A stretch of DNA of 64,000 nucleotides from Leucoraja ocellata (taxonomy: Eukaryota), in the NCBI GenBank assembly GCA_036785375.1, contig JAWMAR010000053.1, positions 4,588,001 to 4,652,000 of the forward strand, written 5' to 3'. A program made the translations under genes and the position numbers. Positions 11,237 through 64,000 of the stretch are shown piece by piece; the first letter of the stretch is position 1, and every line of letters begins with the position of its first letter. Below the pieces are notes generated by a model. That model saw only the letters and a list, made by a program, of their open reading frames with translations. It did not search any database and was not told the DNA's origin.

Positions 11237-11333
11237 GTAAGGATTACATTTACATTATTTTAAAACGTATTTTCTAAACAATTTCTGTGAATCAAGGCAT
11301 TGTTAAATCTAAATAAATCATTTATTCTTACAG

Positions 11334-14300: not shown

Positions 14301-17300
14301 AGAACCCTGAAGTTACATCAATTACAAAGGATTCAATGGTGGTTTGCTGGGGACATCCTGATTCTAATGGTGGAAGTGAAATCACAAACTATATTATTGA
14401 AAGACGTGACAAGGCAGGAATGCGATGGGTTAAATGCACCAAAAGGATAGTTACTGATTTCCGATACAAAGTTGGTAAACTCACAGAAGGGCACGAATAT
14501 GAATACAGGATCCAGGCTGAAAATGCTGCTGGTTTAAGTCAACCTAGTTCAACAAGCCCATTCTACAAAGCATGTGACACCGTATTCAAACCTGGGCCCC
14601 CAGGTAACCCCAGAGTGCTAGACACCACCAGATCTTCAATCACTATTGCATGGAATAAACCTATTTACGATGGTGGCTCGGAAATCACAGGTTACATGGT
14701 AGAAACATGTCTGCCTGAAGAAGATGAATGGACAGTTGTAACCCCACAAAGTGGACTGAAGGCCACATCATTTACAATCATAGATTTAAAAGAAAACCAA
14801 GAGTACAAAATTCGAATCTATGCTATCAACTCTGAAGGCATTGGAGAACCTGCACATATACCTGGAACAGCTAAAGCTGAAGATAGATTATTGCCTCCTG
14901 AGATTGAGCTTGACGCAGATTTGCGCAAGGTGGTGTCTATAAGAGCTTGCTGCACGTTGAGATTATTTGTTACAATTAAAGGAAGACCAGCTCCTGAGAT
15001 TAAATGGGCAAGAGAAAATGGGGAACCCCTAGACAGGGCTTCAATTGAGAATACAAGCTCTTACTCGCTCCTTGTCATTCCCAATGTTAATAGATTTGAT
15101 AGTGGCAAATATATCCTGACAGTGGAGAACAGTGGTGGCAGCAAGAAGGCTTTTGTCAATGTTAGAGTTTTGGATACCCCAGGGCCAGCACAAAATCTCA
15201 AAATTAAGGAAATTTCCAAAGACTCTGTTACAATTACATGGGAACCTCCTCTTATTGATGGCGGCTCCAAGATTAAAAACTACATAGTGGAGAAAAGAGA
15301 GTCAACAAGAAAAGCATATTCTACAGTGAATGCCAACTGCCATAAGACAAGTTGGAAGGTGGATCACTTACATGAAGGATGTAATTACTACTTCCGTATT
15401 CTTGCTGAAAATGAATATGGCATAGGTCTGCCTGTTGAGACAACTGAATCAGTTAAAGTATCCGAGCGACCACTTCCACCAGGCAAAGTAACACTTGTGG
15501 ATGTAACAAGAAACAGTGCAGTTTTGACATGGGAGAAACCAGAACATGATGGAGGCAGCAGAATTTTAGGATACATTGTGGAAATGCAAAGCAAAGGAAG
15601 TGAAAAATGGACAATATGCACTACTGTGAAAGTAACTGAAGCCACAATAACAGGGCTGACGCAGGGTGAAGAGTATATGTTACGAGTATCGGCACAAAAT
15701 GAGAAAGGTATCAGTGATCCCCGACAACTGGGAGTTCCAGTAATTGCAAAGGATCTTCTGATTGCCCCTGCTTTTAAGCTTTTGTTCACCACCTTCAGTG
15801 TCCTAGCAGGAGAAGACTTGAAAGTCGATGTACCATTTATCGGACGACCTAAGCCAACAGTCTCTTGGCTGAAAGATAATCAAACATTAAAACAGACAAC
15901 ACGAATTAATGCTGAAAGCAAAGATAATAAAACAGTTCTTTGCATTAAGGAAGCCTGTCGTGAAGATGTTGGGCGGTATAATGTGAAACTTATAAATTGT
16001 GCTGGTGAAGTATCTGAAGATCTTAGCATTATTGTTTTAGACAAGCCTGGACCTCCAGCTGGACCAGTTGTCATTGATGATGTTACTGCAGATCATATCT
16101 CAATATCGTGGAAAGCACCAGAATATGATGGTGGCTGTCAGATCAGTAATTACATTGTTGAGAAAAGAGACACTTCAACCACTACCTGGCAGATGGTTTC
16201 TGCCACTGTTGCCCGTACAACAATCAAAGCTGCACGTTTAAAGACCGGTACCGAATATCAGTTTAGAATTGCAGCTGAAAATAGATATGGAAAGAGCAGT
16301 TATCTTATTTCTGAATCTGTCGTTGCACAATATCCTTACAAGGCTCCAGGCCCACCTGGTACTCCATTCTTAACAAATGTCACGAAGGACAGTATGGTAG
16401 TACAATGGAATGAACCTGTCATTGATGGTGGCAGTAAGATTTTAGGTTACCATCTTGAACGCAAAGAAAGAAACAGCATTTTATGGATGAAGCTGAATAA
16501 AACAATTATTTCCGATACTAAATTCAAAACCACGAATCTCGAAGAAGGCATTGAATATGAATATAGAGTATCTGCTGAGAACATTGTTGGCATTGGAAAA
16601 CCAAGTAAAGTATCTGAATGTGTTGCAGCTAGAGACCCTTGCGATCCGCCAGGTCGTCCTGAAGCTATAATTGTGACTAGAAATTCAGTGACACTGCAGT
16701 GGACGAAGCCAGAATATGATGGTGGCAGTAAAATCACTGGCTACATCGTTGAAAAGAAAGAACTTCCTGATGGTCGCTGGATGAAGGCAAGCTTCACTAA
16801 TGTCATTGATACACAGTTTGCAGTAACTGGCTTAACAGAGGACCAAAGGTATGAGTTCAGAGTAATAGCAAGAAATGCAGCGAGTGTTTTCAGTGAACCT
16901 TCTGAATCCACTGGTCCAATCACTGTTCGAGATGAAGTAGACCCACCACGAATTAGCATGGATCCACAATATAAGGATGTTATTGTAGTGCATGCAGATC
17001 AATCATTCAAAATTGAAGCTGATGTATATGGTAAACCAATACCTACAATTCAATGGATGAAAGGAGACCACGAACTTGCAAATACAGCTAGGCTTGAAAT
17101 TAGAAGTACTGACTTTAATACACACCTGTCTGTGAAGGAAGCCATCCGTGTAGACAGTGGCCCCTACACCCTTTTGGTAAAGAATGTAGCTGGTCAGAAG
17201 TCTGTAACTGTTAATGTGAAGGTGCTTGACAAACCAGGACCACCAGAAGGGCCAATTATTATCAGTGGAGTCACTGCCGAGAAGTGCACATTAAGCTGGA

Positions 17301-20300
17301 AGCCACCATTACAGGATGGTGGTAGTGATGTTTCACATTATGTTGTTGAGAAAAGAGAAACAAGTCGTTTAGTCTGGACAGTTGTTGATGCTAATGTACA
17401 AACTTTAAGTTGCAAAGTTACCAAACTTCTGGAAGGAAATGAATATATCTTCCGTATTATGGGTGTAAACAAGTATGGTGTAGGTGAATCACTTGAATCT
17501 AGCCCTGTAATAGCAAAGAATCCATTTGTTTGCCCTGATGCACCAATGGCACCAGAGGTTACTGCTATCACAAAGGATTCAATGGTAGTTGCATGGGGCA
17601 GACCAGCATCTGATGGCGGTAGTGAAATTCAAGGTTATATTTTGGAAAAACGTGACAAGGATGGCATACGATGGACAAGGTGTAACAAACGGCTGATTAG
17701 TGAACTACGTTTCAGGGCTACTGGACTTATTGAAAACCATAATTATGAGTTTAGAGTATCTGCTGAGAATGCTGCTGGTGTCAGTGAACTAAGTCCATGC
17801 TCTATCTTCTATAAGGCATCTGACCCCATCTACAAACCTGGACCACCTAACAATCCTAAAGTAATTGACTTTACAAAATCTTCTGTCTTCCTTTCATGGG
17901 GAAAACCTATTTATGATGGCGGCTGTGAAATCCAAGGATACATTGTAGAGATGTGTGATGTAAGTGTTGATGAATGGACAATGTGCACAGCAGCAAGTGG
18001 GATTATGCAGACCAGATTTGAAGTGGATAAATTGCAGGAAAAACATGAATACAAGTTCCGTGTCTGTGCTATCAATAAGGCTGGAGTTGGTGAACACTCT
18101 GACTTTCCTGGCACTGTTCTTTTGGAAGATAAGTTAGAAGTCCCAGATCTTGACCTTGATGCAGATCTAAGGAAGATTATTAATGTCAGAGCCAGTTGTT
18201 CTTTGAGATTATTTGTTCCCATTAGAGGCCGGCCTACTCCAGAAGTAAAATGGTCCAAAGCTGATGGTGAAATAAGAGACACTGCACAGATTGAAGTTTC
18301 TGATAGTTATACATTACTTGTCATTGATAATGTTAATAGATATGACTCGGGCAAATACATATTAAATTTGGAAAATAGTAGCGGAACAAAATCTGCCTTT
18401 GTTAATGTGAGAGTCCTTGATACACCAAGCCCACCAATAAATCTTAAAATCAAAGAAATAACAAAAGATAGTGTCACTTTATCCTGGGAACATCCTCTGT
18501 TGGATGGAGGTGCCAAAGTTAAAAATTTTATTGTTGAAAAGCGAGAATCTACAAGGAAGGCATACTCGGCTGTTACCACGAATTGCCACAAGACGTCTTT
18601 TAAGATAGAACAACTTCAAGAAGGTTGCAATTATTACTTTAGAGTAACAGCTGAAAATGAACATGGAATTGGATTGCCTGCAGAAACGATTGACCCAGTT
18701 AAAGTATCTGAAGTGCCACAGCCTCCGGGAAAAATAACAGTGATTGATGTAACAAGGAACTGTGTGTCCCTTGCGTGGGAAAAGCCAGAACATGATGGCG
18801 GTAGCAGAATTATCCAGTACATTGTGGAAATGCAAACAAAAGGTAGCGAAAAGTGGTCAGCTTGTGCTCATGTAAAGGCACTTGAGGCGACAATTAGTAA
18901 CTTGGCCCAAGGGGAGGAATATGTGTTCCGAGTCGTAGCAGTGAATGAAAAGGGGAAGAGTGACCCAAGAACTCTTGCAGTGCCAGTGGTTGCGAAAGAT
19001 CTTGTGATTGAACCAGATGTCAGACCAACATTTAGTAGTTACAGTGTTCTGGTAGGGCAAGACCTAAAAATTGAAATTCCTATATCTGGACGTCCTAAAC
19101 CGAACATTACTTGGATAAAGGATGGTCAGCCACTCAGGCAGACGACCAGAGTCAATGTTGTTGACTCTGACAATAGTACGGTACTCAGCATTAAGGAATC
19201 AATTCGAGATGATCATGGATTATATACCATCACTGTGGCTAATGTTGTTGGCCAAAAAGCAGCATCCATTGAAATAATAGCACTTGATAAACCTGGCCCA
19301 CCAAGTGGCCCTGTAAGACTTGATGCAGTTAGTGCTGAAAGCATCACAATTTCATGGGATCCTCCAAGCTTTACTGGTGGCTGTCAGATAACTAACTACG
19401 CCGTTGAGAAGAGAGATACGACTACCACAAACTGGGACATTGTTTCAGCTACAGTTGCTAGAACAAGTCTGAAGATAAACAAACTTAAAACTGGAGCCGA
19501 ATATCAGTTTAGAATATTTGCTGAAAATAGGTACGGTAGAAGTTTTGCTTTGGATTCTGGGACAATTTTAGCACAGTATCCCTTTAAAGAGCCTGGTCCA
19601 CCAGGTACACCATTTGTAGCAACTGCTAGTAAAGACAGCATGGCTGTCCAGTGGCATGAACCAATTAATGATGGAGGTAGTAAAGTCCTTGGTTATCACC
19701 TCGAACGTAAAGAAAGAAACAGTATTCTCTGGACAAAAGTCAATAGGACTATAATACAGGATACAAGACTTAAAACTACAGGACTTGAAGAAGGCATTGA
19801 ATACGAATTTAAAGTATATGCTGAAAATATTGTTGGTATTGGAAAACCCAGCAAAGTTTCAGAATGCTATGTTGCTCGTGATCCATGCGATCCTCCAGGT
19901 TGCCCGGAAGCAATTATTGTAACAAGAAATTCAATAACTCTTCAGTGGACAAAACCAGAATATGATGGAGGCAGCGTCATTACTGGATATATTGTAGAGA
20001 AACGTGACTTACCCGAGGGTCGCTGGATGAAGGCAAGCTTTACAAACATAATTGAAACCCAATACACTGTAACTGGTCTCACTGAAGATGACAGGTATGA
20101 CTTCAGGGTAATTGCCAAGAATGCTGCTGGTACATTTAGCAAACCATCTGACAACACTGGGCCAATTACTGCAAAGGATGAAGTTGAGCTACCTAGAATA
20201 TCCATGGATCCAAAATACAAAGATACAATAGTGGTTCATGCAGGTGAAACATTTAAGTTAGATGCTGATGTTCATGGCAAACCATTGCCCATTTTACAGT

Positions 20301-23300
20301 GGATCAAAGGTGAAAAGGAAGTTGAAGAGTCAGCAAGACTTGAGGTCAAAAATACTGATTTTAAAGCTTTACTTCTAGTTAAAGATGCGATCAGAGTAGA
20401 TGGTGGACAGTATATACTTCAAGCCTCAAATGTGGCTGGTACAAAATCTGTTTCAATCAATGTAAAAGTCTTGGACAGACCAGGACCTCCAACAGGTCCA
20501 ATCCGAGTAACTGGCGTCACCATTGAAAAGTGTTCATTATCCTGGGGCCCACCAGAACATGATGGTGGAAGTGATATTGCACATTATATTATTGAGAAAA
20601 GGGAAACTAGTCACCTGGCTTGGACTGTTGTGACATCAGATGTCAAAGCTACAATGCATAAAGTTACCAAGCTCCTGGAAGGTAATGAATATATCTTCCG
20701 AATAATGGCTGTGAACAAGTTTGGTGTTGGTGAGCCCTTGGAGTCTGAACCCATTGTGATGAAGAATCCATTTGTACCTCCTGGTCCACCAAAATCTTTG
20801 GAAGTAACTAATATTGCAAGAGACTCGATGACTATCTGCTGGAATAGACCAGATGACAATGGTGGCAGTGAAATTATTGGTTATGTCCTGGAGAAGAGGG
20901 ATAAGGCTGGAATCAGATGGACAAAGTGCAACAAACATAACATAACAGATTTGCGTTTCAGAGTCACAGGTCTCGCAGAGGACCATGATTATGAATTTAG
21001 GGTAACTGCTGAAAATGCCGCTGCATTTGGTGAACCAAGCCATCCAACAAATTTCTATAAAGCGTGTGATCCAATTTACAAGCCTGGGCCACCATCAAAT
21101 CCTCGCGTTGCAGATACAACAAAAGATTCTATTATGCTTATATGGGGCAAGCCAATTTATGATGGTGGCAGTGACATTCAAGGATACATAGTGGAAATCC
21201 GTAAAGCAGACGAGGAAGACTGGACAATGTGCACACCACAGACTGGACTCCAAGTGACTCGCCTTGAAATTGGAAAGCTTATTGAACATCAGGAATACAA
21301 TATTCAAGTATGTGCCATCAATAAGATTGGAGTTGGAGAGCCAGCACAAGTTCCTGGTATGGTTAAAACGGAAGATAAACTTGAACCACCAGAAATTGAA
21401 CTCACAGCAGAGTTAAGAAAAGGAATCACAATAAGAGCTGGCAATACTATCAGAATCTTCGTACCATTTAAAGGGAGACCAACACCTGAGATCACTTGGT
21501 CTAAGGAAGAGGGTGAGCTATCTGAAAAGTCTCAAATAGAAAAGAGCCTGAGTTATACTCAATTAACAATAGATAACTGTGATAGAAGTGATGCTGGCAA
21601 ATATATCCTGACTTTGATAAACAGCAGTCTTACTAAATCTGCATTTGTTATCGTAAAAGTCCTTGACACACCTGGAGCTCCACAACATTTAACTGTAAAG
21701 GAGATAAGGAAAGAATCAGTTACACTAGTATGGGAACCACCCATTATTGATGGAGGTGCAAAGGTTAAGAATTACATTATTGATAAGCGAGAAGCAACCA
21801 GAAAAGCCTATGCTAATGTAACCACTAAATGTAGTAAATGCAATCTCAAAATTGAGAATCTAGCTGAAGGAGCTATTTATTATTTCCGAGTAATGGCAGA
21901 AAATGAGTTTGGTGTTGGTGTACCTGTTGAAACTGTGGATGCTGTAAAGGCTTCTGAACCACCTTTACCACCAGGAAAGATCACCCTTGTCGATGTCACT
22001 CAAAAGACTGTGTCACTTATTTGGGAGAAACCTGACCATGATGGAGGTAGCAGAATCATGGGATACTTGGTTGAAATGCAACCTAAAGGATCGGAGAAGT
22101 GGGGTGTTGCTACCCAATCCAAAACTTGCGATGCAGTTGTTTCTGGTCTCAGTTCAGGGCAAGAATATCTGTTCCGTGTGATTGCTTTCAACGAGAAAGG
22201 AAAAAGTGACCCTAGACTGTTGGCTGTGCCAGTGATAGCCAAAGATCAAAGTATAGCACCAGAATTTAGGCTCTTATTCAACACGTATAGTGTTCAAGCC
22301 GGGGAAACTCTGAAGATTGAAGTTCCATTTATTGGCCGTCCAAAACCCAAGATTGTATGGATGAAAGATGGGCAGACACTAAAACAAACAACAAGAGTTA
22401 ATGTTGAAGATGGAGAAACAGCTACAACCCTTCTTATAAAAGAAAGTCACAGAGATGACTATGGGAAGTATTCAGTAAGTGCTACAAATGCTGGCGGAAC
22501 AGTAACAGAAGAAATTGGCATTATCGTGCTTGATAAACCAGGTCCACCAATTGGACCTGTAAGATTTGATGAAGTTAGTGCGAATTTCATTGTAATATCA
22601 TGGAATCCACCTGAATATACTGGAGGATGTCAAATTAACAATTACATAGTTGAGAAACGGGACACAACTACAGTTACATGGAACCTGGTGTCTGCAACTG
22701 TGGCACGGACAACGATTAAAATCACTAAACTTACCACAGGATCTGAATATCAATTCAGAATCTTTGCTGAAAATAGATATGGAAATAGTTCATCTTTGGA
22801 TTCTACAGCAGTAATAGCACAGTACCCGTACAAACTACCCGGACCACCAGGAACTCCATTTGTGTCATCTGCCACAAAAGACAATATGCACGTGCAATGG
22901 AATGAACCAGTGATTGATGGTGGAAGTAAAATATTAGGTTACCACCTTGAACGCAAAGAAAGAAACAGTATTCTCTGGACAAAATTAAACAAGACCATTC
23001 TTCAGGATACACAATACAAGTGTAATAACCTGGAAGAAGGTATTGAATATGAATTCAGAGTGTCTGCAGAGAATATTGTTGGCATTGGTAAACTTAGCAA
23101 GGTGTCCGAATGTTATGTAGCACGTGATCCTTGTGATCCACCTGGCTGTCCTGAGGGAGTTGTCATCACAAGAAATTATGTTACTCTACAATGGAAAAAG
23201 CCTCAATATGATGGTGGAAGCAAAATTACTGGGTATGTTGTTGAAAAGAAAGATCTTCCTGATGGTCGCTGGATAAAAGCTAGTTTTACAAACATTATTG

Positions 23301-26300
23301 AAACTGAATTCACAGTTTCTGGATTAACTGAAGATGCAAGATATGAATTTAGAGTACTTGCGAGAAATGCAGCTGGTATTTTCAGTGAACCATCTGAAAG
23401 CTCTGGACCAATTACAGCGAGAGATGAAATTGAAGCTCCAAGGGTTTCCATGGACCCCAAGTACAAAGATATAATTATTGTTAATGCAGGAGACACCTTT
23501 GTATTGGATGCTGACATCCATGGTAAACCTATCCCTGATGTAGCATGGATCAAAGATGGCAAAGATATTGATATAAATGTTGCAAGAATGGAGATTAAAT
23601 CCAGCATTCAAAGAACTAGTCTTACTGTCAAGGATTGTATACGAACTGATGGAGGACATTACATACTTAAGCTCAGTAACGTAGGTGGAGAGAAATCTAT
23701 TCCTATAACTGTTAAGGTTCTTGATAGGCCCGGCCCACCCGAAGGTGTTTTGAAGGTTTCCGGTGTTACTGCAGAAAAGTGCTACCTGGCTTGGAATCCA
23801 CCTTCTCAGGATGGTGGTGCCAATATTTCTCACTACATAATTGAGAAGAGAGAAACTTCCAGACTTTCATGGACACAAGTAGCATCTGATGTGCAAGCTA
23901 TTAGTCACAAAGTAACCAAACTTCTTCCAGGTAATGAGTACATTTTCCGTGTAATGGCAGTAAACAAATATGGAATTGGTGAGTCGCTGGAATCTGAACC
24001 AGTTGTGGCTAAAAATCCGTACCATACCCCAAGTGCACCAACAACGCCTGAGGTGACAGCTATTGCTAAAGATTCTATGGTTGTGACGTGGGGACATCCT
24101 GTGGACGATGGTGGAGCTGAAATTGAAGGTTACATACTGGAGAAGCGAGACAAAGATGGAATCAGATGGGTCAAATGCAATAAGAAGAGGTTGACCGATT
24201 TACGATTTAGAGCTACTGGCTTAACAGAAGGTCATTTCTATGAATTCCGTGTGTCTGCTGAAAATGCTGCTGGCGTAGGTGACACAAGTGAACCATCCAT
24301 TTTCTACAGAGCCTGTGATGTAATTTATGTTCCTGGCCCACCAAACAATCCAAAGGTGATCGACACAACAAAATCCACAGTATCCCTTGCATGGAGCAAG
24401 CCAATTTATGACGGTGGAGCTAACATTAAGGGTTATACTGTGGAGATTAAAGAAACCAATGCTGATGACTGGATCACATGCACGCCTTCAACAGGTGTAC
24501 AATCAAGACATTTCACATTAACAAACATGAAGGAGAATACCGAGTATAATATCCGCATCTGCGCCATTAATTCAGAAGGAGTAGGCGAACCTGCTAATAT
24601 ATCTGGTACAGTAGTTGCAGCTGATAAGCTTGAAGCACCAGAAATTGAGTTGGATGCTAATCTCAGAAAGGTGGTGTCTGTACGAGCTGGTGGTACTTTG
24701 AGGTTATTTGTTCCCATTAAAGGAAGACCAGAGCCTGAAGTAAAATGGGAAAAAGTTGAAGGTGCTTTAAGTGAGAGAGCCCAGATTGAAGTTACAGGCT
24801 CCTACACCATGTTAGTGGTGGATAACGTTAACAGATTTCACAGTGGCAAGTATAATTTGACTTTGGAAAATAACAGTGGTAGCAAATCTGCTTTCGTTAA
24901 TGTCAGAATACTTGATTCACCTAGCAGTCCTGTGAATCTGCACATAAAAGAAGTGAGAAAAGATTCAGTAACTATATCATGGGAACCACCTCTTATTGAT
25001 GGTGGAGCTAAAATAACAAATTACATTGTTGAAAAGCGTGAATCTACTAGGAAAGCTTATGCTGCTGTTACCAACAATTGTATGAAAAACACATTCAAAA
25101 TTGATTCATTACAAGAAGGGGGGATTTATTTATTCCGTGTAATGGCAGTCAATGAGTATGGAATTGGCTTACCAGCAGAGACTGCTGAGCCTGTTAAAGC
25201 ATCTGAGGTGCCCTTGCCCCCAAGCAAAGTGATATTGGTAGATGTAACAAGAAATAGTGCAACACTTACCTGGGAGAAACCGGAACATGATGGAGGTAGC
25301 AAAATAACTTCCTACATTGTTGAAATGCAGACAAAAGGAAGTGAAAAATGGATTTCATGTGCCCAAGTGAAGGCACTAGAGACAACAGTGAAAGGATTAA
25401 CCTCAGGTGAAGAATACACCTTTACTGTGCGAGCTGTTAATGAGAAAGGAAAGAGTGATCCAAGGCAGTTAGGAGTACCAGTAATTGCAAAAGATATTGA
25501 AATTGAACCCTCTGTTGAGCTTCCTTTCAATAGTTTCAGTGTTAAGGCTGGTGATGACCTCAAGATTGATATACCATTTAGAGGAAGACCTTTGCCAACG
25601 GTGACATGGAAGAAAGATGGCCAGCCTTTGAGACAAACAACGCGATTAAATTTTCAGACAACAAAAACATCAACTCTTTTGACCATCAAAGAAGCCTTAA
25701 AGGAAGATGTTGGAAAATATGAACTAACTGTTGCCAATAGTATAGGATCAAAAACTTTCTTAATTAATGTAATTGTTCTTGACAAACCGGGACCACCAAA
25801 TTGTATTCGTCTTGATGAAATTAGTTCTGATTATGTGGTTATATCTTGGACAGCACCAGAATATGACGGTGGTTGCCAAATTACCAATTACATTGTTGAA
25901 AAGAGAGACACCACAACAACAACCTGGCAAATAGTTTCTGCCACTGTAGCAAGAACATCAATTAAAATCATAGGACTTACAACAAGAAGCGAATACCAGT
26001 TCCGTGTTTATGCAGAAAACAGATATGGTAAAAGCCACTCTTGTGAATCTCCTGCTGTTGTCGCAGAATATCCATTTAAACTGCCTGGTCCTCCATCAAC
26101 TCCTATCGTTGCACATGCCACCAAAGGTTATATGATTGTAAAATGGAATGAACCCGTTTTCGATGGAGGTTCTAAAATTATTGGATATCACCTTGAATGC
26201 AAAGAAAGAAGCAGTATCCTGTGGAAGAAGATGAATAGAGGTCCAATTAATGACACAAAAATGAAAGTAACTGGCCTTGAAGAAGGTCTGTCATATGAGT

Positions 26301-28439
26301 TCCGTGTTTATGCAGAAAATATTGCAGGCATTGGCAGAGCCAGTAAAGCTTCTGAAACTGTTGCAGCAAGAGATCCATGTGACTCTCCAGGTCAACCCGC
26401 CGTAACAAATATTACCAGAACCTCTGTTTCACTTTCTTGGACTAAGCCGGAATATGATGGTGGTGCTAAAGTTACTGGTTATATTATTGAATCCAAGCAG
26501 CTACCTGATGGACGCTGGCTTAAATGTAACTTTACCAACATCCAAGAAACATATTTTGATGTTACTGGTCTTACTGAAGATCAACGCTATGAGTTCCATA
26601 TTATTGCAAAGAATGCTGCAGGACTATTCAGTGAACCATCTGAATCAACAGGGCCCATTACTGTAAAGGATGATATGGAAGCCCCAAGAATTATGATGGA
26701 TGCCAAATTTAGAGAGATTATTGTGAAGGCAGGTGACACTGTTAAGTTTAATGCAGATATAGCTGGCCGTCCTCTTCCGGTGATATCATGGACAAAGGAT
26801 GGTAAAGAACTTGAAGGACATGCTAGAGTTGAAATCCAGTCAACGGACAACAGCACTGCAGTTGTCATTAAGGACTGCATTAGAAGAGACTCAGGACAAT
26901 ATGTCATAACATTGCAGAATGTAGCAGGAACAAGATCCCTAGCTGTTAACTGTAAGGTACTGGACAGACCAGGCCCACCTGCTGGTCCTTTGGAAATAAC
27001 TGGCTGCACATCTGAAAAGTGTTCATTGTCATGGGCACCACCTCAAGAGAATGGAGGAGCAGAAATTGATCACTATATTGTAGAAAAACGAGAAACAAGT
27101 CGTCTTGCTTGGACATGCATAACGGATAACTCACCTACAACATCTTGTAAGGTAACTAAACTGCTTCCAGGCAATGAGTATGTTTTCAGAGTAATGGGAG
27201 TCAACAAGTTTGGAGTCGGTGAAGTCTTGGAGAGTGAACCTGTAAAAGCTGTAGATCCATTCACAGTTCCCAGTGCACCAAAATCAATTGAAATTAGCAA
27301 TGTCACAAAGAATTCTATGACTATCTGCTGGGGAAGACCTGAGAGTGATGGTGGAAATTCAATTGCTGGATATGTTATTGAGAAGCGTGAAAAGACAGGT
27401 TTACGCTGGACTCGAGTCACTAAGAAACCTGTGTATGATCTAAGAGTAAAAGCAGCAGGACTTCGTGAAGGTGCTGAATATGAATATCGTGTTTATGCAG
27501 AAAATGCTGCAGGACTCAGTCTTCCAAGTGAACCATCAACGTTGGTCTGTGCAAAAGATCCAGTTTTCTTACCTTCTCCACCATCCAGACCAAAAATTAT
27601 TGATTCAACAAAGGCAAGCATTACTGTTAGCTGGAAAAAGCCATTGTTTGACGGTGGATCACCAGTGACGGGATACACTGTAGAGTATAAAATGTCTGAC
27701 GACACTGAATGGACTACCGCAGTTCAGAATTTGAAGGGCACTGAGTATACGGTGCATGGACTTACATCTGGAGCAGAGTATATTTTCTGTATAAGATCCA
27801 TTAACAAAGTTGGTGCCAGTGATCCAAGTGAAATATCAGAGCCACAAATTGCTAAAGAAAGAGAAGAGGAACCTGCATTTGATGTTGATAATGAAATGCG
27901 TAAAACGTTGATTGTCAAGGCTGGAAGTTCCTTTACATTAACTGTACCTTTTAGCGGAAAGCCAGTACCTAATGTTATGTGGAGCAAAACTGATGTAGAT
28001 CTCCGGGTAAGAGGAAATATAGAGACTAGTGATACAAAAACATCGCTGACAATCGAAAAAGCAACAAGGAATGACTGTGGTAAATACACAGTAACATTGC
28101 AGAACGTCTTAGCCACTGCCACACTGACAATGGTTGTCAAAGTTCTGGATTCACCTGGACCTCCTGGTGCTATTACTGTCAAAGAAGTTACCAAAGAATC
28201 TGTAACACTGGCCTGGGATGTTCCAGAAAATGAAGGAGGTGCTCGTGTGAAGACATATCATATTGAAAAGCATGAAGCTAGTAAGAAGGCATGGGTCACT
28301 GTGACAAACAACTGTCAGAGACTTACTTACAAAGTCAGTGACTTGCAAGAAGGAGGCATTTACTATTTCCGTGTCCGGGGAGAAAATGAGTTTGGCATTG
28401 GCGTACCTGTTGAGGCCAAGGAAGGAGTTAAAATAACAG
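11334..28439 (+). CDS. TTN: Titin giant A-band exon (A64-A121, about 58 domains; counterpart of human exon 326), 17,106 nt
   Basis: tacag|ATGTG ... ACAG|gtaatt inside the 5750-aa ORF; super-repeat-initial Ig domains recur about every 3.25 kb (~11640, 14900, 18140, 21385, 24635, 27870). Confidence 0.97.
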
Positions 28440-29479
28440 GTAATTTATCCATTTATTATTGTCACTTTAATATTTTAATTACGTTATTGAACAATGTATT
28501 GTGGCATAATCGCATAACGTTCTTTAGAATTACCAATGGAATTTTTGTGTAATTTTGCACATTTTAACTTAGCTTTTTCCATGAAGTCATTGCAAGATTA
28601 CAATGAATGATCTGCTAAATGAAAAAAATAGCAGCTTCCTTAAATATAAATATGACAGAACAATTATTGTAGTGATCAATAGGGGTTAAAAAAATAATCA
28701 GCCCATACTGAGTTTCAGCTGTGAATGTGCTAATGTGGCCTCAATATTTGTAGGACTAAGTGGCAAAAGCAATCAAAAACTATGCATTGGATCTCATTAA
28801 TCGTAATTGGTGATCTGTCAGTATTTGGTGAGCCTCCACAAACAGCCTGCCTGCCTGAAGAAAATGAATCACATTCCATTTATGCTCAAAGTAATCCTGA
28901 AAGGAAAGAGGAAGATCAACCTAGTGTTTAGGAGGATGCAAAATGGGTGCCAAAGCAAAATGGGTGCAAAAGAGCATGCTGAGATTGGGACATTAATCAG
29001 TACACCTCTCCTGCTTCTGACACAGCACCAATGTTTTACCAATTTCTTGAACAAAAAATAGTTGGTGGTATTCAATCAATCCCAGTTTCCATTAAATTAT
29101 CAAGATTGGAGCAGTCTTTCACTGACTCTATAGTTATGATACATAGCTTCAAAGAGAGGGCTGATTCGGGCATGAGGATTCCAATTTATTTCTGTAAGGG
29201 ATATAATGTTTTGTACTGCCAGAGACATTTCCTTAAATGGCTGACCTCATCAGAATATATGTTCTGCTCCGTTTCAGCGATAGGATATAGAATCAGACTT
29301 ATTGCAACTTTGAAGATGATTATTAGGCCCAATAAATGTGTGCCGGCTATTTGCATGCACATCCATGGCAAATCCAACTTTTTTCCCAGCAATTTATCTC
29401 TCTGTCAAATAGCTTTCCAATGCCGGTTTGAAAGTGAAATGCAGGTTGTGACAAATCACATTGTGAACACGCTTTTCCC

Positions 29480-49599: not shown

Positions 49600-50217
49600 G
49601 TAACCCAGGTATTTTCCCCTGCAACCGCAGGAGATCTCCCTTTACCTGCCCCTCGAATTCATCCAATGACCCCGACAGTCTTTTCAGGTGAGGCAGAGGT
49701 TCACCTGCTCCTCCTCCAACCTCATCTACTGTATCCCACTGTTCAAGGTGTCAACTCCTGTACATCGTTGAGACCAAGTGCAGGCTCGCTGATTGTTTCG
49801 CTGAACACCTCCACTCAGTATGCCTTAACCTACCCGATCTCACGGTTGCTCAGCACTTTAACTCCCCCTCCCATTCCCAATCTGACCTTTCTGTTGTGGG
49901 CCTCCTCCATTGTCAGAGTGAGGCCCAGCGCAAATTGGAGGAACAGCACCTCATATTTTGCTTGGGTAGTTTACACCCCAGTGGACTTCTCTAACTTCAT
50001 TCCATCCCCTCCCCCTTCCCAGTTCTCCCACCAGTCTTACTGCCTCTGACTTCATTCTATCTGTCCCGCCCACTCCCCTGACATCAGTCTGGAGAAGGGT
50101 CTCAATCCGAAACATCACCTTCCTTCTCTCCAGAAATGCTGCCTGTCCCATGCTGATTTACTCCAGCATGTTGTGTCTACCTTTGATTTAAACCAGCATC
50201 TGCAGTTCTTTCCTACT
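49600..50217 (+). mobile_element. Penelope-like retroelement 3' fragment (GIY-YIG endonuclease remnant plus terminal repeat)
   Basis: Translates with one frameshift to FQVRQRFTCSSSNLIYCI/HCSRCQLLYIVETK...FAEHL...VAQHFNSPSH...RKLEEQHLIF; ends aaccagcatctgcagttcttt, also seen at 49360-49381. Confidence 0.85.
50080..50120 (+). ncRNA. Degenerate minimal hammerhead ribozyme motif of the Penelope element
   Basis: ctggaga-agggtctcaatcc-gaaac-atc versus the hammerhead core CUGANGA-stem II-GAAA-NUH; core A6 is replaced by G. Confidence 0.55.
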
Positions 50218-50277
50218 CATTAACTTTTACATTCACTTGCCTTTAAGTATTTATAACCTTTTTTTGTTTGTTTCTAG

Positions 50278-53200
50278 TCCCAGCCAAGATTCAACTACCC
50301 AAATATCTGGAAGGCATGGGTGCAGTTCATGCTCTCCGTGGTGAAATTATAAGCATTAAGATTCCTTTCAGTGGAAGACCTGATCCTGTAATTACATGGC
50401 AGAAAGGACAAGATCTCATTGATAATAATGGTCATTTTCAAGTAATTGTCACCAGATCTTTTACATCTCTGGTGTTCCCGAATGGAGTTGACATAAAAGA
50501 TGCTGGTTTCTACGTTGTGTGTGCCAAGAACAGATTTGGCATAGATCAGCAAACAGTTGAACTGGACGTGGCAGATGTACCCGACATGCCAAGAGGAATT
50601 CAAGTCCGTGACATTGCACGTGATTCTGTCAATTTAACATGGAGTGCTCCAGCTAATGATGGTGGAAGTAAAATAATTAACTACATCATTGAGAAATGTG
50701 CAACAACTGCAGAGATGTGGATACGCGTAGCACAGTCACGTGATACACATTACACTGTTGTCAATCTATTTGGCAAAACTAGCTACCAGTTCCGTGTGAT
50801 TGCTGAAAACAAGTTTGGACAGAGCAAGCCATCAGAGCCAACTGATCCAATAGTCACAAAAGAAGACAAGTCAAGAGTTATGAACTATGATGAAGAGGTC
50901 GATGAAACCATTACAATTACTAAAGGCAAAGCTAATCATTCTACTATTAAAGATCTTCATTCCCGCTACACATTTGCTGAAGAGCTGGGACGTGGACAAT
51001 TTAGTATTGTTCATCGCTGTATGGAAAACGTAAGCAAGAAAACATACATGGCAAAGTTTGTGAAAATCAAAGGTGCTGATCAGGTACTTGTGAAGAAAGA
51101 GATTGACATTCTCAATATTGCTAGACACAGAAGCATCCTATGGCTGCATGAATCATTTGAGAGCCTTGAAGAATTAGTCATGATCTTCGAGTTTATTTCA
51201 GGTGCTGACATTTTTGAGCGCATTAATTCTACTACCTTTGAACTAACTGAGAGAGAAGTTATCATCTACACTCGCCAAGTCTGTGAAGCATTGGAATTTC
51301 TACATAGTCAGAACGTGGCGCTTTTTGATATCAAACCAGAGAATATAATCTACACCACAAGGAAAAGCTCTTTTATTAAGATTGTTGAGCTTGGTCAGGC
51401 CAGGGCACTCACACCGGGTGACAACATTAGAATTCAGTTCACTGCCTCAGAGTACGCAGCACCTGAACTGCACCAGCATGATGTGGTCAATGCAGCCACA
51501 GACATGTGGTCAGTCGGTACACTTGTGTATGTATTACTCAGTGGTCTGAATCCATTTATTGCTGAAACAAACCAACAGGTTATTGACAACATTATTAGAG
51601 CAGAATATAGTTTTGAGGATGAAGCTTTCAAGGATATCACAACTGAAGCTCTTGACTTCATTGATCGCCTGTTGGTCAAGGAAAGGAAGAGTCGGATGAC
51701 AGCTGCTGATGCTCTTGAACATGTATGGTTGAAGCAGAAGACAGAGAAAATGAGCACCAAAGTAATTAAGACTTTGAGACACAGAAGGTACTATCAGACC
51801 TTAATAAAGAAGGAAATGAACCTTGTTGTTTCCGTGGCTCGAATTTCCTCTGGTGGAGCTGTTAGAGCTCAAAGGGGAGTTACAGTTGCTAAAGTTAAAA
51901 TATCTTCAATTGAAATTGGTCCACTTGCTGGTCAGATCATGCACGCTACTGCTGAAGAGGGCGGTCATGTTAAATATTCCTGCAGAATCGAAAATTACGA
52001 TCAATCTACCCAAGTCACTTGGTACTTTGGTGTCAGGCAACTTGAATGCAGCGACAAGTATGAGATTACCTATCAGGATAGTTTGGCAACAATGTATGTT
52101 AAAGACATAAACAAGACAGATGATGGTACATACAGATGCAAAGTAGTAAATGACTATGGTGAAGATAGTTCCTATGCAGAATTGTTTGTGAACGGTGTAA
52201 GAGAAATCCGTAAATACTTTATGCAACGTACTGTAAAGAGAGTAAAACGTAAAGTGGATACAATGAGGCTTCTTGAAAGACCACCAGAATTCACTCTGCC
52301 TTTGTACAACCAAACTGCCTACATTGGAGAAGATATCAGATTTGGTGTTACTATAACTGTTCACCCTGACCCAAGAGTAACTTGGTTGAAATCTGGACAA
52401 AAGATTAAGCCTGGTGAAGATGAGAAAAAATATACTTTTGTGTCTGACAAAGGTCTCTATCAACTGATAATCCACAAGTTAACAAACGATGATGATGCTG
52501 AGTACACAGTACAAGCTCGCAATAAATATGGTGATGACAGCTGCAAAGCCAAACTAACTGTAACACCTCACCCACCTCCAGCAGACAGCACGTTGAGACC
52601 AATGTTTAAACGTTTGTTGGCAAATGCAGAATGTACAGAAGGCCAGAACATTCGTTTTGAGTGTAGAGTATCTGGCACACCAGTACCAACTCTGAAATGG
52701 GAGAAAGATGGACAGGCTTTGTCATTATGTCCAAATATTGAAATTGTACATGAAGGTCTAGACTACTATGTTTTGCATGTAAGGGATACTTTGCCTGAAG
52801 ATTCTGGCATTTACCGACTCACTGCTACCAACAGTGCTGGATCTGCAAGTTGCCAAGCATATCTGAAAGTTGAACGCATGACCTATGTTAAGCGTCAATA
52901 CAAGAGTGAGGAGGAACGCCAGCAACATGTTCAGAAACAAATTGACAAAACCATTAGAATGGCAGAAATACTTGCAAATGTTGAATCTGTTCCATTGACC
53001 GCTGTAGCAAAGCAAGCTCTGAAAGAAGCTGCAATATTGTACAAACCAGCTGTCAGTACCAAGAATGTAATAGGTGAATATGAAATTTCAGAGGTCAAAA
53101 GGAGAAAGGAAGAAAAGAGACTTCGAATGCCTTATGAAATTCCAGAACCTCGTGTTCATGCAGCAAATGTAATTGAAGAAAATCAAGATATTAAACAGTT

Positions 53201-56153
53201 TGTGCCTTTGTCAGACATGAAATGGTACAGGAAATTGCGAGACCAATATGAAATGCCAGCAACATTGGAACGAATTGTAACAAAACGGCCAAAACGAATT
53301 CGTCTGTCAAGATGGGAGCAGTTTTACGTTATGCCACTGCCACGCTTTACCGATCAGTATAAACCCAAATGGCGAATTCCCAAACTGTCACAAGATGATC
53401 TGGAAACAGTAAGACCAGCTCGAAGGCGAACCCCATCACCTGACTACGAAATTTATTACAGACCAAGAAGGCGATCACTTGGGGACATGTCAGAAGACGA
53501 CTTACTTCTACCTGTTGATGACTATCTCTCAATGAAAAGAGTGGAGGAGGAAAGATTACGTCTTGAGGAGGAGCTTGAATTAGGATTTTCTGCATCACCT
53601 CCGAGCCGTAGCCCTCCCTGTTTTGAATTATTATCCCTTCAGCAAAGATATAAACAGACACAATTATCCACAGCACAAAAAGAGGAAAAATATACCGGCT
53701 ACCAAAAATATCACATCCCTTCCAAATGTGAAGCTGGCCTTAGTTATACAGATCTCAGGCAGCGACATGACAAAGCTGTTTATAAACCCCCAAAGCAAAG
53801 ACAAAGAATGATGGAAGACATTGAAGACGACGAGCTCCTTAGACCAGTTGCTACCACTCAGAGATTGTCTTCCTACCGAAAAGAACTTGAGTACATGGAA
53901 CAGGAGGAAAAAGTAAGGATCAAACGTAGACGAGAAAGAGAGATATTTGTAACAAGATCAGAAGAAGAAGAAGCGCAAGCCATCGAGGTTAAGCAATATG
54001 TTCGTCAAGAATCCCCATCTGTCTCAAAGCTTCTTAGGAGAAGGAGATCACTTTCCCCAACTTACATTGAATTAATGCGACCTGTTTCTGAACTGATCAG
54101 ATCTCGAACACGTCATACCGAATTTGAAAGTGAAGGTTTAGAAAGACGCTCACCCACACCCGAGAGAACCCGGCCTCGTTCACCCAGCCCTGTGTCTCGA
54201 GAGAGCTCACTATCACGCTATGAAAGAACTGCTAGATTTGACATCTTTTCACGATATGAGTCAATGAAAACTGCTTTAAAATCTCAAAGAACTTCAGAAG
54301 GGAAATATGAAGTTATTACTCAAGAGCCTTTCAGCCTTGACCATGGTCCACGTATAACTTTGAGAATGCGTTCTCACCGCATCCCGCTCAGTCAAAATAC
54401 AAGATTTACTCTAAATATTCTGTGCAAGCCAAAATCTGAAGTTAGATGGTACCACAATGGTATAGAAATTCAAGAGAGTGACAAGTATCGTTTTACTGAT
54501 ATGACTGGTGTCCTGACACTGGAAATTCAGGATTGTCAAGCTGAAGATAGTGGAACCTATCGTGTTGTTTGTTCCAATTATAAAGGAGAGACCTCTGACT
54601 ATGCAACATTAGATATTACAGGAGGTGACTACCTTACCTACTTGTCTCGCCGTAGAGATGAGGAAGCACCACAATCACTTGTACCTGAACTGACAAGAAC
54701 TGATTTTTACCAAATATCTACAATTAGAAAAGCTGCAGAATTTGAAGAGACAAGAGAAACTAGAACAAAAGAATCCGAAATAAAAGAATCGGTCAGCTAC
54801 GGCCTCTATGATTCAAAGGAAAAGTCAGCTTATGCATCTAAGCGAACTCTTCCTGCCAAAATACTAACAAAACCACAATCAGTCACGGTAGCAGAGGGAG
54901 AATCTGTTCGATTTTCTTGTGGCACTGATGGTGAGCCAACACCCACTGTGACATGGATGCATGGGGGAAGAATGATTACAACTTCTAAACGTTTACTTAT
55001 TGTTACAACACAGTATAAATCTACCTTTACAATTACATCAGTTCAATCATCTGATGAAGGAAGCTATACGGTGATGGTAGAAAATTCTGAAGGAAAACAA
55101 GAAGCACATTTTACTCTGACAATACGAAGGGCAGGAGTAAAAGAAGTGGGTATTGTAGCAGAGCCAATGGGAAAGGTCCCTGAACCTCAAACAAAGTCTT
55201 TTGAGGGAACAAAAACTTCCAAGAGAATCAAATCACCAGAACCAGTCATTTCATCTCCAAGAGTTAAATCGCCACCAGCTGTCAGGACACTTTCAGGAGA
55301 ACGAGTAGAGATCCCGGCAAGTGCTCCACCTAAGATTTCTCAAGCTTTGAAAGCTGAGGTTTCTGATGATGGTTCTGTAAAACTAGCATGTGCAGTTGAA
55401 AGCACAGCTCTGAATGTGAAAGAATTAACTTGGTTTAAGGATGGATGTAAAATAAGAGAAAACAGCCATTACAAATTGAAATATGCTGCAAATGGTACCT
55501 ATACCTTAAGTATCTATGGACTTAATGAAACTGATGAAGGAGAATATACTTGTGAAATCACCGGTGAGGGAGGAGTTTCCAAAACAACTTTTTCCTTTGT
55601 TGGTCAAGTATTCAAAAACATTGTCAACAAAGTGACCAAGTTAGCTGAATCAAAGGAAGCTACTCAGAAAAAAACTGTAGCTAAGTCGCTTGGAGAAGCA
55701 AAGGTAGTTCAGGAACAAATTGTGAAAAAGGAACTTAAAACATCGTACACAGAGATTACAGCTACACGTGTACAGATTAATGCAGTTGATGGACAAAAGG
55801 CCATTCTTAAGGCCAGCATACCAAATGCTTCCAGTGTGAAATGGGTTGCAAATGGTGTTGAGCTTGCCAATTCAAAAGACTATCAATATGGTGCATCTGG
55901 AAGTGACCACACTTTAACTATCAAAACCATCAGTTTCAGAGATGAAGGCACAATCACCTGTGAAGCAAAAACTGAACATGGAATAGTTAAATGTCAATTT
56001 GATTTAACCATTAAGCAAAAAGAATCAAATGCCCCAAAGTTCATAAAGCAGCACAAATCCCAAAATGTCAATGAAGGAGAAAAGGTGACGTTTATTTGTG
56101 AAATGTCAGGAGATCCTTCTCCAGAGGTTGAATGGCTAAAAGACAACCAACCC
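50278..56153 (+). CDS. TTN: Titin M-band exon: A169, A170, kinase, M1-M6, M8 and first half of M9 (spans human Mex1-Mex3, no M7), 5876 nt
   Basis: tctag|TCCCA ... ACCC|gtaagt inside the continuous 1965-aa ORF. Confidence 0.93.
50967..51731 (+). other. TTN: Titin kinase (pseudokinase) domain coding region
   Basis: LGRGQFS, YMAK, LFDIKPEN, ELG, APE and DMWSVG motifs; followed by the regulatory tail KTLRHRRYY...VARISSGG. Confidence 0.97.
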
Positions 56154-56231
56154 GTAAGTAATTAATTATTTTCAGTTTATGCTAATTTATCTAGTTATCC
56201 AAATAATAATTTGACTTATTCTATATTTCAG

Positions 56232-56385
56232 ATTGCAGTCTCAAGAAATATAAAAATCAATCGTTTGAAAAACATGTATACATTAGAGATTAAGTGCACA
56301 GTGGTCTCTGACAGTGGAAAATATACAGCAGCAGCAAAGAATTTCCATGGACAATGTTCAGCAACAGCCTCTTTGATTGTACTTG
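56232..56385 (+). CDS. TTN: Titin Mex4 counterpart, second half of M9, 154 nt
   Basis: ttcag|ATTGC (phase 0) ... CTTG|gtaagt; DSGKYT...KNFHGQCSATASL. Confidence 0.95.
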
Positions 56386-56391
56386 GTAAGT

Positions 56392-57347
56392 TTTATTATT
56401 TTTTTTAATTTAATTTTATTCTTTATTTCGAACAGAATAAAAGAATAAAAAGCAAGTGTGAAACAGCATACAAAAAACAAAACAAGAATATTTATAAAGT
56501 GTCATAAACAATATCTATAAATAAATGAAATCGTATGTGTCCAAAAAGGAGCAGGAAGAAGCCAAAGCTTATTAATTCCCACCCCTTATTCAACTGCTTG
56601 TAATTATCTTATACAAATTTAGCAGCTATATGTACACCATATGTACACCAGCAGCTATATGTACACCAAATTATTTACATTTATACACTAATCAAATATT
56701 TACAAAGCCATACAAAAAAAGAGAATAAAAGAAAAGAAAAAACCCTCATGTACTATACAGTATCTTAATCATATATACAACCCATCACCCTTCCCAATAC
56801 AATCAGTATAACAAATATCCCACTCACAATCACCTATCCTCATCCCAATATCCTTTTTAAAAAGTGTTTTTGTACATCTTTTTAAACTGAATTATGTTTG
56901 TGCTAAGTTTTATCTCCTGTTCCAGACCATTCCACAAATTCACACCACAGATTGCTATGCACATACTTTTAAGAGTTGTTCTGACATTGAGTGTTATAAA
57001 ATTATGTTCCCCTCTTAAATTATACCCACCCTGTCTTTCCATAAACAGTTTTTGTACATTTCCTGGAAGTAAATTATGTCTTGCTTTGTACATGATTTGT
57101 GCAGTCTTAAATGTAACCGGATCGGTGAACTTCAGTGTATGTGACTTTAAGAATAATACATTGGTATGTTCAAGATATCCAACGTTATTGATCATTCTTA
57201 TTGCTCTTTTTTGTAATGTGCATAATGGCTGAAGGTTGGTTTTGTAGGTGTTACCCCATATCTCCACACAGTAACTCAGATATGACAATATGAGTGTATT
57301 ATACAATGTAATGATCTGTTATCCAGAATGCGTCTTGATTTTCCCAA
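56392..57347 (-). mobile_element. 5'-truncated LINE (L2/Crack-like), antisense
   Basis: Minus-strand ORF 56857-57306 (YNTLILSYLSYCVEIWG...LQKRAIRMI...YNLR...LWNGL); A-rich tail (T-rich on +) at ~56392-56428. Confidence 0.85.
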
Positions 57348-57673: not shown

Positions 57674-57952
57674 GTCTCCTTGAAGAACCTTCAAAATTGG
57701 TTGTTTTGGAATCCGGTGCCAGTGCCTCCGCTATGATGCAGGAACATTTCTCTGCCAAAACATTGCAAATGTCCAAGCAAGAGGCCAGCAGCAGCAGCAT
57801 GAGTGAAGTGAAGTTTGCCAGTATGTCTTCAAGCAGTATGTCATCTTTTAAAGAATCAATGATATCATCGAGCTCCAGCTCTTTTATGGAGCATTCCAGT
57901 ATGAGCCAGTTGGAAGCAAGTACTGGCAGAATGATTAGCGGTAGTATTAAAG
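57674..57952 (+). CDS. TTN: Titin Mex5 counterpart (is7, Ser/Met-rich), 279 nt, frame-preserving
   Basis: tacag|GTCTC ... AAAG|gtgatg; LEEPSK...SSSSMSEVKFASMSSSSMSS. Confidence 0.92.
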
Positions 57953-60025: not shown

Positions 60026-60794
60026 GGGGCTGGTGAGTGTTTGCCGGGCTGGTGAGTGTTTGCGGGGCTGGGAGTGTTTGCGGGGCTGGCGAGTGTTTGT
60101 GGTCTGGCGAGTGTTTGCGGGGCTGGCGAGTGTTTGCGGGGCTGGTGAGTGTTTGCGGGGCTGGTGAGTGTTTGCGAGGCTGGTGAGTGTTTGCGAGGCT
60201 GGTGAGTGTTTGCGGGGCTGGTGAGTGTTTGCGGGGCTGGTGAGTGTTTGCGGGGCTGGTGAGTGTTTGCGAGGCTGGTGAGTGTTTGCGGGGCTGGTGA
60301 GTGTTTGCGGGGCTGGTGAGTGTTTGTGGTCTGGCGAGTGTTTGCGGGGCTGGTGAGTGTTTGTGGTCTGGCGAGTGTTTGCGGTCTGGCGAGTGTTTGC
60401 GGGGCTGGTGAGTGTTTGCGAGGCTGGTGAGTGTTTGCGGGGCTGGTGAGTGTTTGCGAGGCTGGTGAGTGTTTGCGGGGCTGGTGAGTGTTTGCGAGGC
60501 TGGTGAGTGTTTGCGGGGCTGGCGAGTGTTTGCGGGGCTGGCGAGTGTTTGCGGGGCTGGTGAGTGTTTGCGGGGCTGGTGAGTGTTTGCGGGGCTGGCG
60601 AGTGTTTGCCGGGCTGGTGAGTGTTTGCGGGGCTGGCGAGTGTTTGCCGGGCTGGTGAGTGTTTGCGGGGCTGGCGAGTGTTTGCCGGGCTGGTGAGTGT
60701 TTGCGGGGCTGGTGAGTGTTTGCCGGGCTGGTGAGTGTTTGCCGGGCTGGTGAGTGTTTGCGGGGCTGGCGAGTGTTTGCGGGGCTGGTGAGTG
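60026..60794. repeat. Minisatellite, 19-bp unit ggggctggYgagtgtttgc, about 40 copies
   Basis: Direct tandem repeat; minus-strand ORFs show a 19-aa period (3 units); several shortened variant units. Confidence 0.97.
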
Positions 60795-62924: not shown

Positions 62925-64000
62925 AAGGGCTTAATTAGGAAAGTGGAAAATAGATTATGAAAGAAAACTGGCAGGGAACATAAAAACTGACTGCAAAAGT
63001 TTTTATAGAAATGTGAAGAGAAAAAGATTAGTTAAAACAAATGTAGGTCCCATGCAGTCAAAAACAGGTGAATTGATCATGTTGAACAAAGACATGGCAG
63101 ACCAATTGAATAACTCCTTTTGTTCTGTCTTCACTAAGGAAGACATAAATAATCTGCCAGAAATAGCAGGGGACCGGGGGTCAAATGAGATGGAGGAACT
63201 GAGTGAAATCCAGGTTAGCCAGGAAGTGGTGTTGGGTAAATTGAATGGATTAAAGGCCGGATAGGCTGCATCCCAGAGTACTTAAGGAAGTAGCCGCAGA
63301 AATAGTGGATGCATTAGTGATAATTTTTCAAAACTCTTTAGATTCTGGAGTAGTTTCTGAGGATTGGAGGGTAGCTAATGTAACCCCACTTTTTAAAAAG
63401 GGAGGGAGAGAGAAAACGGGGAATTACGGACCAGTTAGTCTAACATCGGTAGTGGGGAAACTGCTAGTCAGTTATTAAAGATGGGATAGCAGCACATTTG
63501 GAAAGTGGTGAAATCATTGGGCAAAGTCAGCATGGATTTATGAAAGGTAAATCATGTCTGACGAATCTTATAGAATTTTTCGAGGATGTAACTAGTAGAG
63601 TGGATAAGGGAGAACCAGTGGATGTGTTATATCTGGACTTTCAGAAGGCTTTCGACAAGGTCCCACATAAGAGATTAGTATACAAACTTAAAGCACACGG
63701 TATTAGGGGTTCACTATTGATGTGGATAGAGAACTGGCTGGCAGACAGGAAATCAAGAGTAGGAGTAAACGTGTCCTTTTCACAATGGCAGGCAGTGACT
63801 AGTGGGGTACCGCAAGGCTCAGTGCTGGGACCCCAGCTATTTACAATATATATTAATGATTTGGATGAGGGAATTGAATGCAACATCTCCAAGTTTGTGG
63901 ATGACAAGAAGCTGGGGGGCAGTGTTAGCTGTGTGGAGGATGCTAGGAGGCTGCAAGGTGACTTGGATAGGCTGGGTGAGTGGGAAAATGCATGGCAGAT
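62925..64000 (+). mobile_element. Disrupted CR1 LINE ORF2 running off the window end
   Basis: SFYRNVKRK, FCSVFTKED, NYGPVSLTS, YLDFQKAFDKVPH, GVPQGSVLGP and FVDD motifs with frameshifts. Confidence 0.95.

Follow-up and report, generated by a model that had tools for sequence, protein, structure and literature searches.

The M-band end of human titin is described as a row of ten domains, M1 to M10, encoded by six exons, Mex1 to Mex6 (PMC6922384). In teleosts, M7 to M9 are given as missing from the zebrafish and salmon proteins (PMC6922384, legend to Fig. 1) and M6 as missing from Ttn.1 (PMC12854356), and a single titin gene has been reported in cartilaginous fishes (PMC12241362). Ligand sites of the M-band are placed in is2, is4, is7, M9-M10 and M10, with none in M7, in the available portions of PMC6922384 and PMC5123623. 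M7 is described as monomeric. A literature search found no report of a loss of M7 alone or of a fusion of Mex1 to Mex3; it covered few subscription journals and excluded the work of Granzier et al. 2007 on the chicken titin gene. That chicken study may already contain a layout without M7.

Here we describe the M-band end of a titin gene in a 64-kb stretch of DNA from Leucoraja ocellata (the window, to which all positions refer). The closest published titin is the connectin of the elephant shark (PMC12241362), whose primers match the window; it comes from another species, and the published primer names number it as if ten M domains were present. The same source credits it with an 'almost identical domain structure' to human in the A-band domains, a wording that could conceal precisely a difference in M7.

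Results

The window carries the 3' end of a vertebrate titin (TTN/connectin) gene. Domains A169, A170, kinase and M1 are present in that order (PDB 6ygn, residues 109-657, E = 1e-288; also 2nzi, 1tki and 2bk8), M3, M4 and M5 are orthologous by their matches to 6hci, 3qp3 and 1nct, and the terminal M10 matches named vertebrates with a full M10 at 57-72%. Four exons, of which the kinase exon is the first, lead to the stop codon (Table 1). The first lies within a stop-free frame at 50247-56165 and extends from an AG preceding 50278 to a GTAAGT following 56153, which gives the length of 5,876 nt that the original prediction had assigned to it; it is the equivalent of Mex1 plus Mex3 without Mex2. 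The human Mex1-Mex3 region totals 6,458 nt, with a Mex2 of 157 nt, and the exon count would be 52 against 54 in human, with the others corresponding one to one.

Among the flanking domains, M6 matches the post-M5 domain of Albula, frog and bird at 49-63% and M7 at 29%, and M8 matches the M8-position domain of Albula, Dallia, frog and bird at 55-61%. With human and mammalian titin, as far as PMC6922384 describes it, the window gene shares the kinase, M1-M6, M8-M10, a KSP-bearing is4, an is7 exon, an intron inside M9 and a terminal M10 exon; it differs in lacking M7, in having four terminal exons instead of six and in a linker of 45 aa between M6 and the first strand of M8. Two KSP motifs occur in is4 (55227-55277), and the teleost ttn.1-type is4 has many more. 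A 5,753-aa open frame at 11291-28552 is presumably the giant A-band exon, a label that follows titin gene structure.

Table 1. Features at the 3' end of the titin gene in the window
Feature	Position	Strand	Evidence
Single titin exon, 5,876 nt (A169, A170, kinase, M1-M6, linker, M8, half of M9)	50278..56153	+	AG/GT boundaries, PDB matches
Ig domain M4	54345..54617	+	Pfam I-set; PDB 3qp3, 169 bits
Ig domain M5	54855..55124	+	Pfam I-set; PDB 1nct/1tnm
Ig domain M6	55326..55616	+	Pfam I-set match 55320-55619
Predicted amphipathic helix after M6, start of is5	55602..55679	+	AlphaFold2, model residues 95-120, end of low confidence
Linker half, putatively from is5, 19 aa	55617..55673	+	z 3.3-5.8 against is5
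Linker half, putatively from is6, 26 aa	55674..55751	+	z 2.6-4.1 against fish is6; alignment; pLDDT <50
Ig domain M8	55752..56012	+	Pfam I-set match 55749-56021
M9, first half	56031..56153	+	Pfam I-set positions 1-40
Mex4-equivalent exon, M9 second half, 154 nt	56232..56385	+	
Mex5-equivalent exon, serine-rich is7, 279 nt	57674..57952	+	Label from position and composition
Mex6-equivalent exon, M10 and stop codon	58054..58352	+	

As originally noted, one unbroken frame leads from M6 through the linker into M8 and half of M9 with no intron and no Ig domain in between; Pfam detects no Ig family between M6 and M8 (55593-55793). The structure of titin M7, 3puc (PMC6922384, Table 1), is absent from the 44 PDB matches at E ≤ 1e-12; a Dallia M7 query has 3puc as its best single-domain PDB match (102.8 bits, next 74.3). 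Seven M7 queries (four from named fish and three N-terminal halves) were searched by tblastn against both strands of the 64 kb and yielded no orthologue, every best match being another Ig domain, so that the earlier statement that no displaced M7 or Mex2 exon lies in the window was borne out. The three longest queries reached 54.7, 57.4 and 52.0 bits (28-41% identity), and as controls four domains of the same fish matched their window orthologues at 50-66% and 95-122 bits. A global identity matrix places the window domains at no more than 29% to Dallia M7 and 36% to Albula M7, which are themselves 70% alike. Neither mark of the mammalian-type ten-Ig M-band, M7 between M6 and M8 or six M-line exons, was found. 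By these comparisons the window gene is predicted to encode a nine-Ig M-band titin without M7, in agreement with the original prediction, which had also described Mex1 to Mex3 as fused; M6 and M8 do lie in one exon.

The linker itself appears to be composite. For its first 19 residues, z is 3.3-5.8 with each of four is5 sequences but stays at -1.2 to 0.9 with is6. For the other 26, z is 2.6-4.1 with each of three fish is6 sequences, 2.0 with Albula is5 and negative with mammal-like is5; the split point was taken from the original prediction, and the is6 comparison used fish sequences, with no mammalian is6, some further mammal-like fragments having been left out of the evidence. The proposal of an is5 half followed by an is6-like half is upheld by these scores, and the linker is, as judged from them, is5 joined to is6, with M7 and two introns missing near the junction. 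A TQK-like motif at the join aligns to both is5 and is6 of other species, which hints, at the protein level and without a long DNA repeat, at a deletion between similar short motifs.

In the AlphaFold2 model of the M6-M8 segment (mean pLDDT 78.9), both Ig folds are confident; M6 is followed by a helix, and some 25 residues have low confidence. Helix positions i, i+3/4 and i+7 are hydrophobic in 94-100% of 67-68 M6-bearing rows, and the hydrophobic moment of the window helix was attained in 14 of 5,000 shuffles. The predicted helix is kept in M7-less and M7-bearing forms alike, including teleost ttn.2-type frames that end just past it. It may resemble the Ig-helix unit of myomesin.

Among 35 named proteins examined, 12 have both M6 and M8, and M7 is missing in 11 of these 12: one frog, four birds, one snake, one gecko, three turtles and Scleropages. 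All ten named tetrapods with both domains thus lack M7 in their gene models (P0319, P0321-P0323, P0326, P0327, P0088, P0211, P0218 and P0330). The model of Gopherus is gapped and was not counted as a firm loss. Six genomic frames (P0052-P0057) fall into amphibian-like, bird-like and squamate-like groups; like the window, each continues without a break from the kinase exon as far as the M9 intron and has no M7. The suggestion that the layout is special to one lineage is contradicted by these ten tetrapods and six frames.

The window has the nine-Ig layout of frogs and sauropsids: a single genomic frame holds M6, the linker, M8 and the first half of M9, and M7 is missing. It shares with frog, bird, squamate and turtle titins the short linker and the fusion of Mex1 to Mex3, and differs from them in linker length and junction. 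By one yardstick the spacing from M6 to M8 is 58 in the window, 55-56 in frogs, 69-73 in sauropsids and 170 in Albula, with 39 in one gapped turtle model. As to whether the breakpoints are the same, linker lengths differ and M7-bearing rows intervene. All M7-less linkers are mutually alignable and of low complexity; because such linkers vary freely in length, differing junctions are no proof of separate events. A quick tree of 37 rows with no usable root pairs the M7-bearing mammal-like rows with sauropsids and leaves the amphibian-like rows outside this pair. This position between M7-less groups implies at least two losses of M7 in tetrapods; labels such as mammal-like come from tree position and similarity to named rows, no named mammal being among the matches.

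A survey of open frames classified 118 of the 120 listed among 257 matches, two having been dropped, in a protein database whose length range full-length titins exceed and with a query that itself lacks M7, which favours M7-less matches. Seven frames pass from M6 to M8 without M7, one of them P0051, a protein from a read-derived contig. The beginning of M7 is present in 19, three of them with M6 and 16 lacking it; two more are named models with M7 and M8, one with the first half of M7 only. M5 is followed by M8 in one frame in nine cases (eight of them teleost genomic frames) and by M9 in 16 (15 teleost genomic frames, one keeping part of M8). M6 without M7-M9 was found in 44; 17 end too early and four are unclassifiable. 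An 'm8part' label in 24 survey rows was a cross-match to M6 and was disregarded. Proteins of 3,452-5,000 aa gave mostly unrelated multi-Ig matches, P0042 alone being useful, and a search of 50% representatives was dominated by multi-Ig proteins and held no recognisable shark sequence.

Within the same 118 classified frames, 16 teleost and three mammal-like genomic frames stop at one site inside M7, KDGK/V, and fish and mammal-like N-terminal halves of M7 are 51-59% identical. The shared intron site and this identity indicate that M7 and its intron are at least as old as the bony-vertebrate ancestor. Albula has M5, M6, M7, M8, M9 and M10 in order, in a gene model from a tandem-duplicated locus.

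Teleosts also lose M-band Ig domains, in two genes able to complement each other, whereas the window lacks M7 alone. The window belongs to neither teleost type as these are described in part of the sources, for it has M8 and M9, which ttn.2-type titins lack together with M7, and M6, which ttn.1-type titins lack. Frames of ttn.1 type that delete M7 or M7 and M8 (P0065, P0066, P0079-P0081, P0083, P0085, P0091, P0116-P0118, P0120, P0127, P0129-P0136, P0140 and P0147) have several visibly distinct junctions, and some teleost species may be without M7 in both titin genes. Models from Arapaima (P0332) and Scleropages (P0328) hold about ten M7 residues, after which both pass to is6 at one common point; a shared deletion, alternative splicing or annotation could each explain this, and they were not counted as firm losses. 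Gapped models from Goodea, Mastacembelus and Nothobranchius were likewise not counted as firm.

Taken together, these comparisons suggest that loss of M7 is common, tolerated and apparently recurrent, and not peculiar to the window animal. Within this dataset M7 is, as far as the matches indicate, the M-band domain lost most often.

Discussion

With a probability of roughly 70%, we favour an in-frame deletion in the lineage of this cartilaginous fish that removed M7 with its introns, separately from the losses in tetrapods, M7 being a dispensable spacer. That M7 is old and its loss recurrent in tetrapods and teleosts supports a deletion in the window. A single genomic event from inside is5 to inside is6 would have taken out Mex2, the introns on either side of it and the adjoining ends of Mex1 and Mex3. 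With all four splice sites gone at once, Mex1 and Mex3 would have become one exon with splicing presumably undisturbed, and the protein would pass from M6 through the helix and a short disordered spacer into M8. The low-complexity K/E/S/T flanks with their repeated TQK-like motif may tolerate or even favour such deletions. The event would spare the conserved post-M6 helix and the published ligand sites, and a role for M7 as a dispensable spacer fits this pattern. The different M-line geometry raised in the original prediction is speculative.

An alternative, possible though clearly the less probable, is that the window keeps an ancestral nine-Ig state of jawed vertebrates and that M7 with two introns was inserted on the bony-vertebrate stem. 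By the same reading, which we hold equally tentative, M7 later disappeared from frogs, from sauropsids and, many times over, from teleosts, mammals being the sole sampled tetrapods to keep it. The window and P0142 do fall outside tetrapods and teleosts in the quick, unrooted 37-row tree, every directly observed M7 comes from a bony vertebrate, and an is5-is6 linker fits an insertion equally well. P0142 is the closest relative (86% over kinase-M3), and its gene model, which jumps from M4 to M10, is uninformative about M7. Of seven elephant-shark primers tested, six fit the window at 0-3 mismatches; four primer peptides share 20 of 21 residues with it, and nine tetrapod rows reach 11-14 of 21, with frames picked by their fit to the window. 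These matches and the tree position suit a source that is probably a cartilaginous fish other than the elephant shark.

The names of these primers speak for a deletion. They equate a183 with A170, a185 with M1, a188 with M4, a190 with M6, a193 with M9 and a194 with M10 (PMC12241362), so that a185-a194 could accommodate ten M domains; for the I-band, the primer names use a domain count specific to the species. In the part of the source available, this numbering suggests that the chimaera keeps M7 and that the window lineage lost it; the polarity hinges on these names, which could copy the human count. Module deletions are also frequent among the 118 of 257 matches classified, with no insertion among them. 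Even if M7 was gained in bony vertebrates, frogs and sauropsids must have lost it again. Of the two origins originally offered, deletion thus stands as the likelier, and a gain in bony vertebrates is indirectly disfavoured by the elephant-shark numbering.

Coupled with the ancestral nine-Ig reading, the post-M6 helix, spared by every M6-retaining deletion in the dataset, would be an unrecognised functional element, a combination we regard as doubtful.

It is very improbable that the window, frogs and sauropsids lack M7 through one loss in common or from the start, mammals and teleosts each having gained it separately: the M7-less linkers all align together, as it would predict, but fish and mammal-like M7 have the same position, the same intron site and 51-59% identity, which is incompatible with two gains. 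A contig mis-joined across M7, the first error against which the original prediction asked to be checked, has hardly any probability left. P0051, which is genomic because its end is intron read-through, differs from the window by seven substitutions and a different start and carries the identical M6-M8 junction, so a misassembly is unlikely; the window holds no N letters, the frame is intact, the repeat search near the junction found short chance-type repeats and no long one, and many species have the same layout. Nor is it at all plausible that M7 sits at, or is spliced in from, another place in the locus, with no M7 orthologue on either strand of the 64 kb, M6 and M8 in one exon and no strong splice donor in the linker.

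The window adds one further, independent-looking case of a missing M7, modest by itself. The row of ten domains is a textbook picture taken from mammals and no rule for vertebrates, and lineages with a single titin gene manage without M7. Dispensability of M7 would bear on how in-frame M7 variants in people are weighed, and chicken or frog muscle would offer a ready natural knockout of M7.

Other features of the window

An Rfam search of the window gave no match. Two intronic open frames, at 49692-49994 (+) and 56857-57318 (-), have no Pfam match and look to us like Penelope-type and LINE-type retroelement remnants. A 19-nt minisatellite at 60026-60794 comprises about 41 copies with 92% matches; beyond it, a purine-rich tract extends to about 61380. 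A reverse-transcriptase fragment (Pfam RVT_1) lies at 63471-63995 and presumably resembles the CR1-type LINE of sharks and rays.
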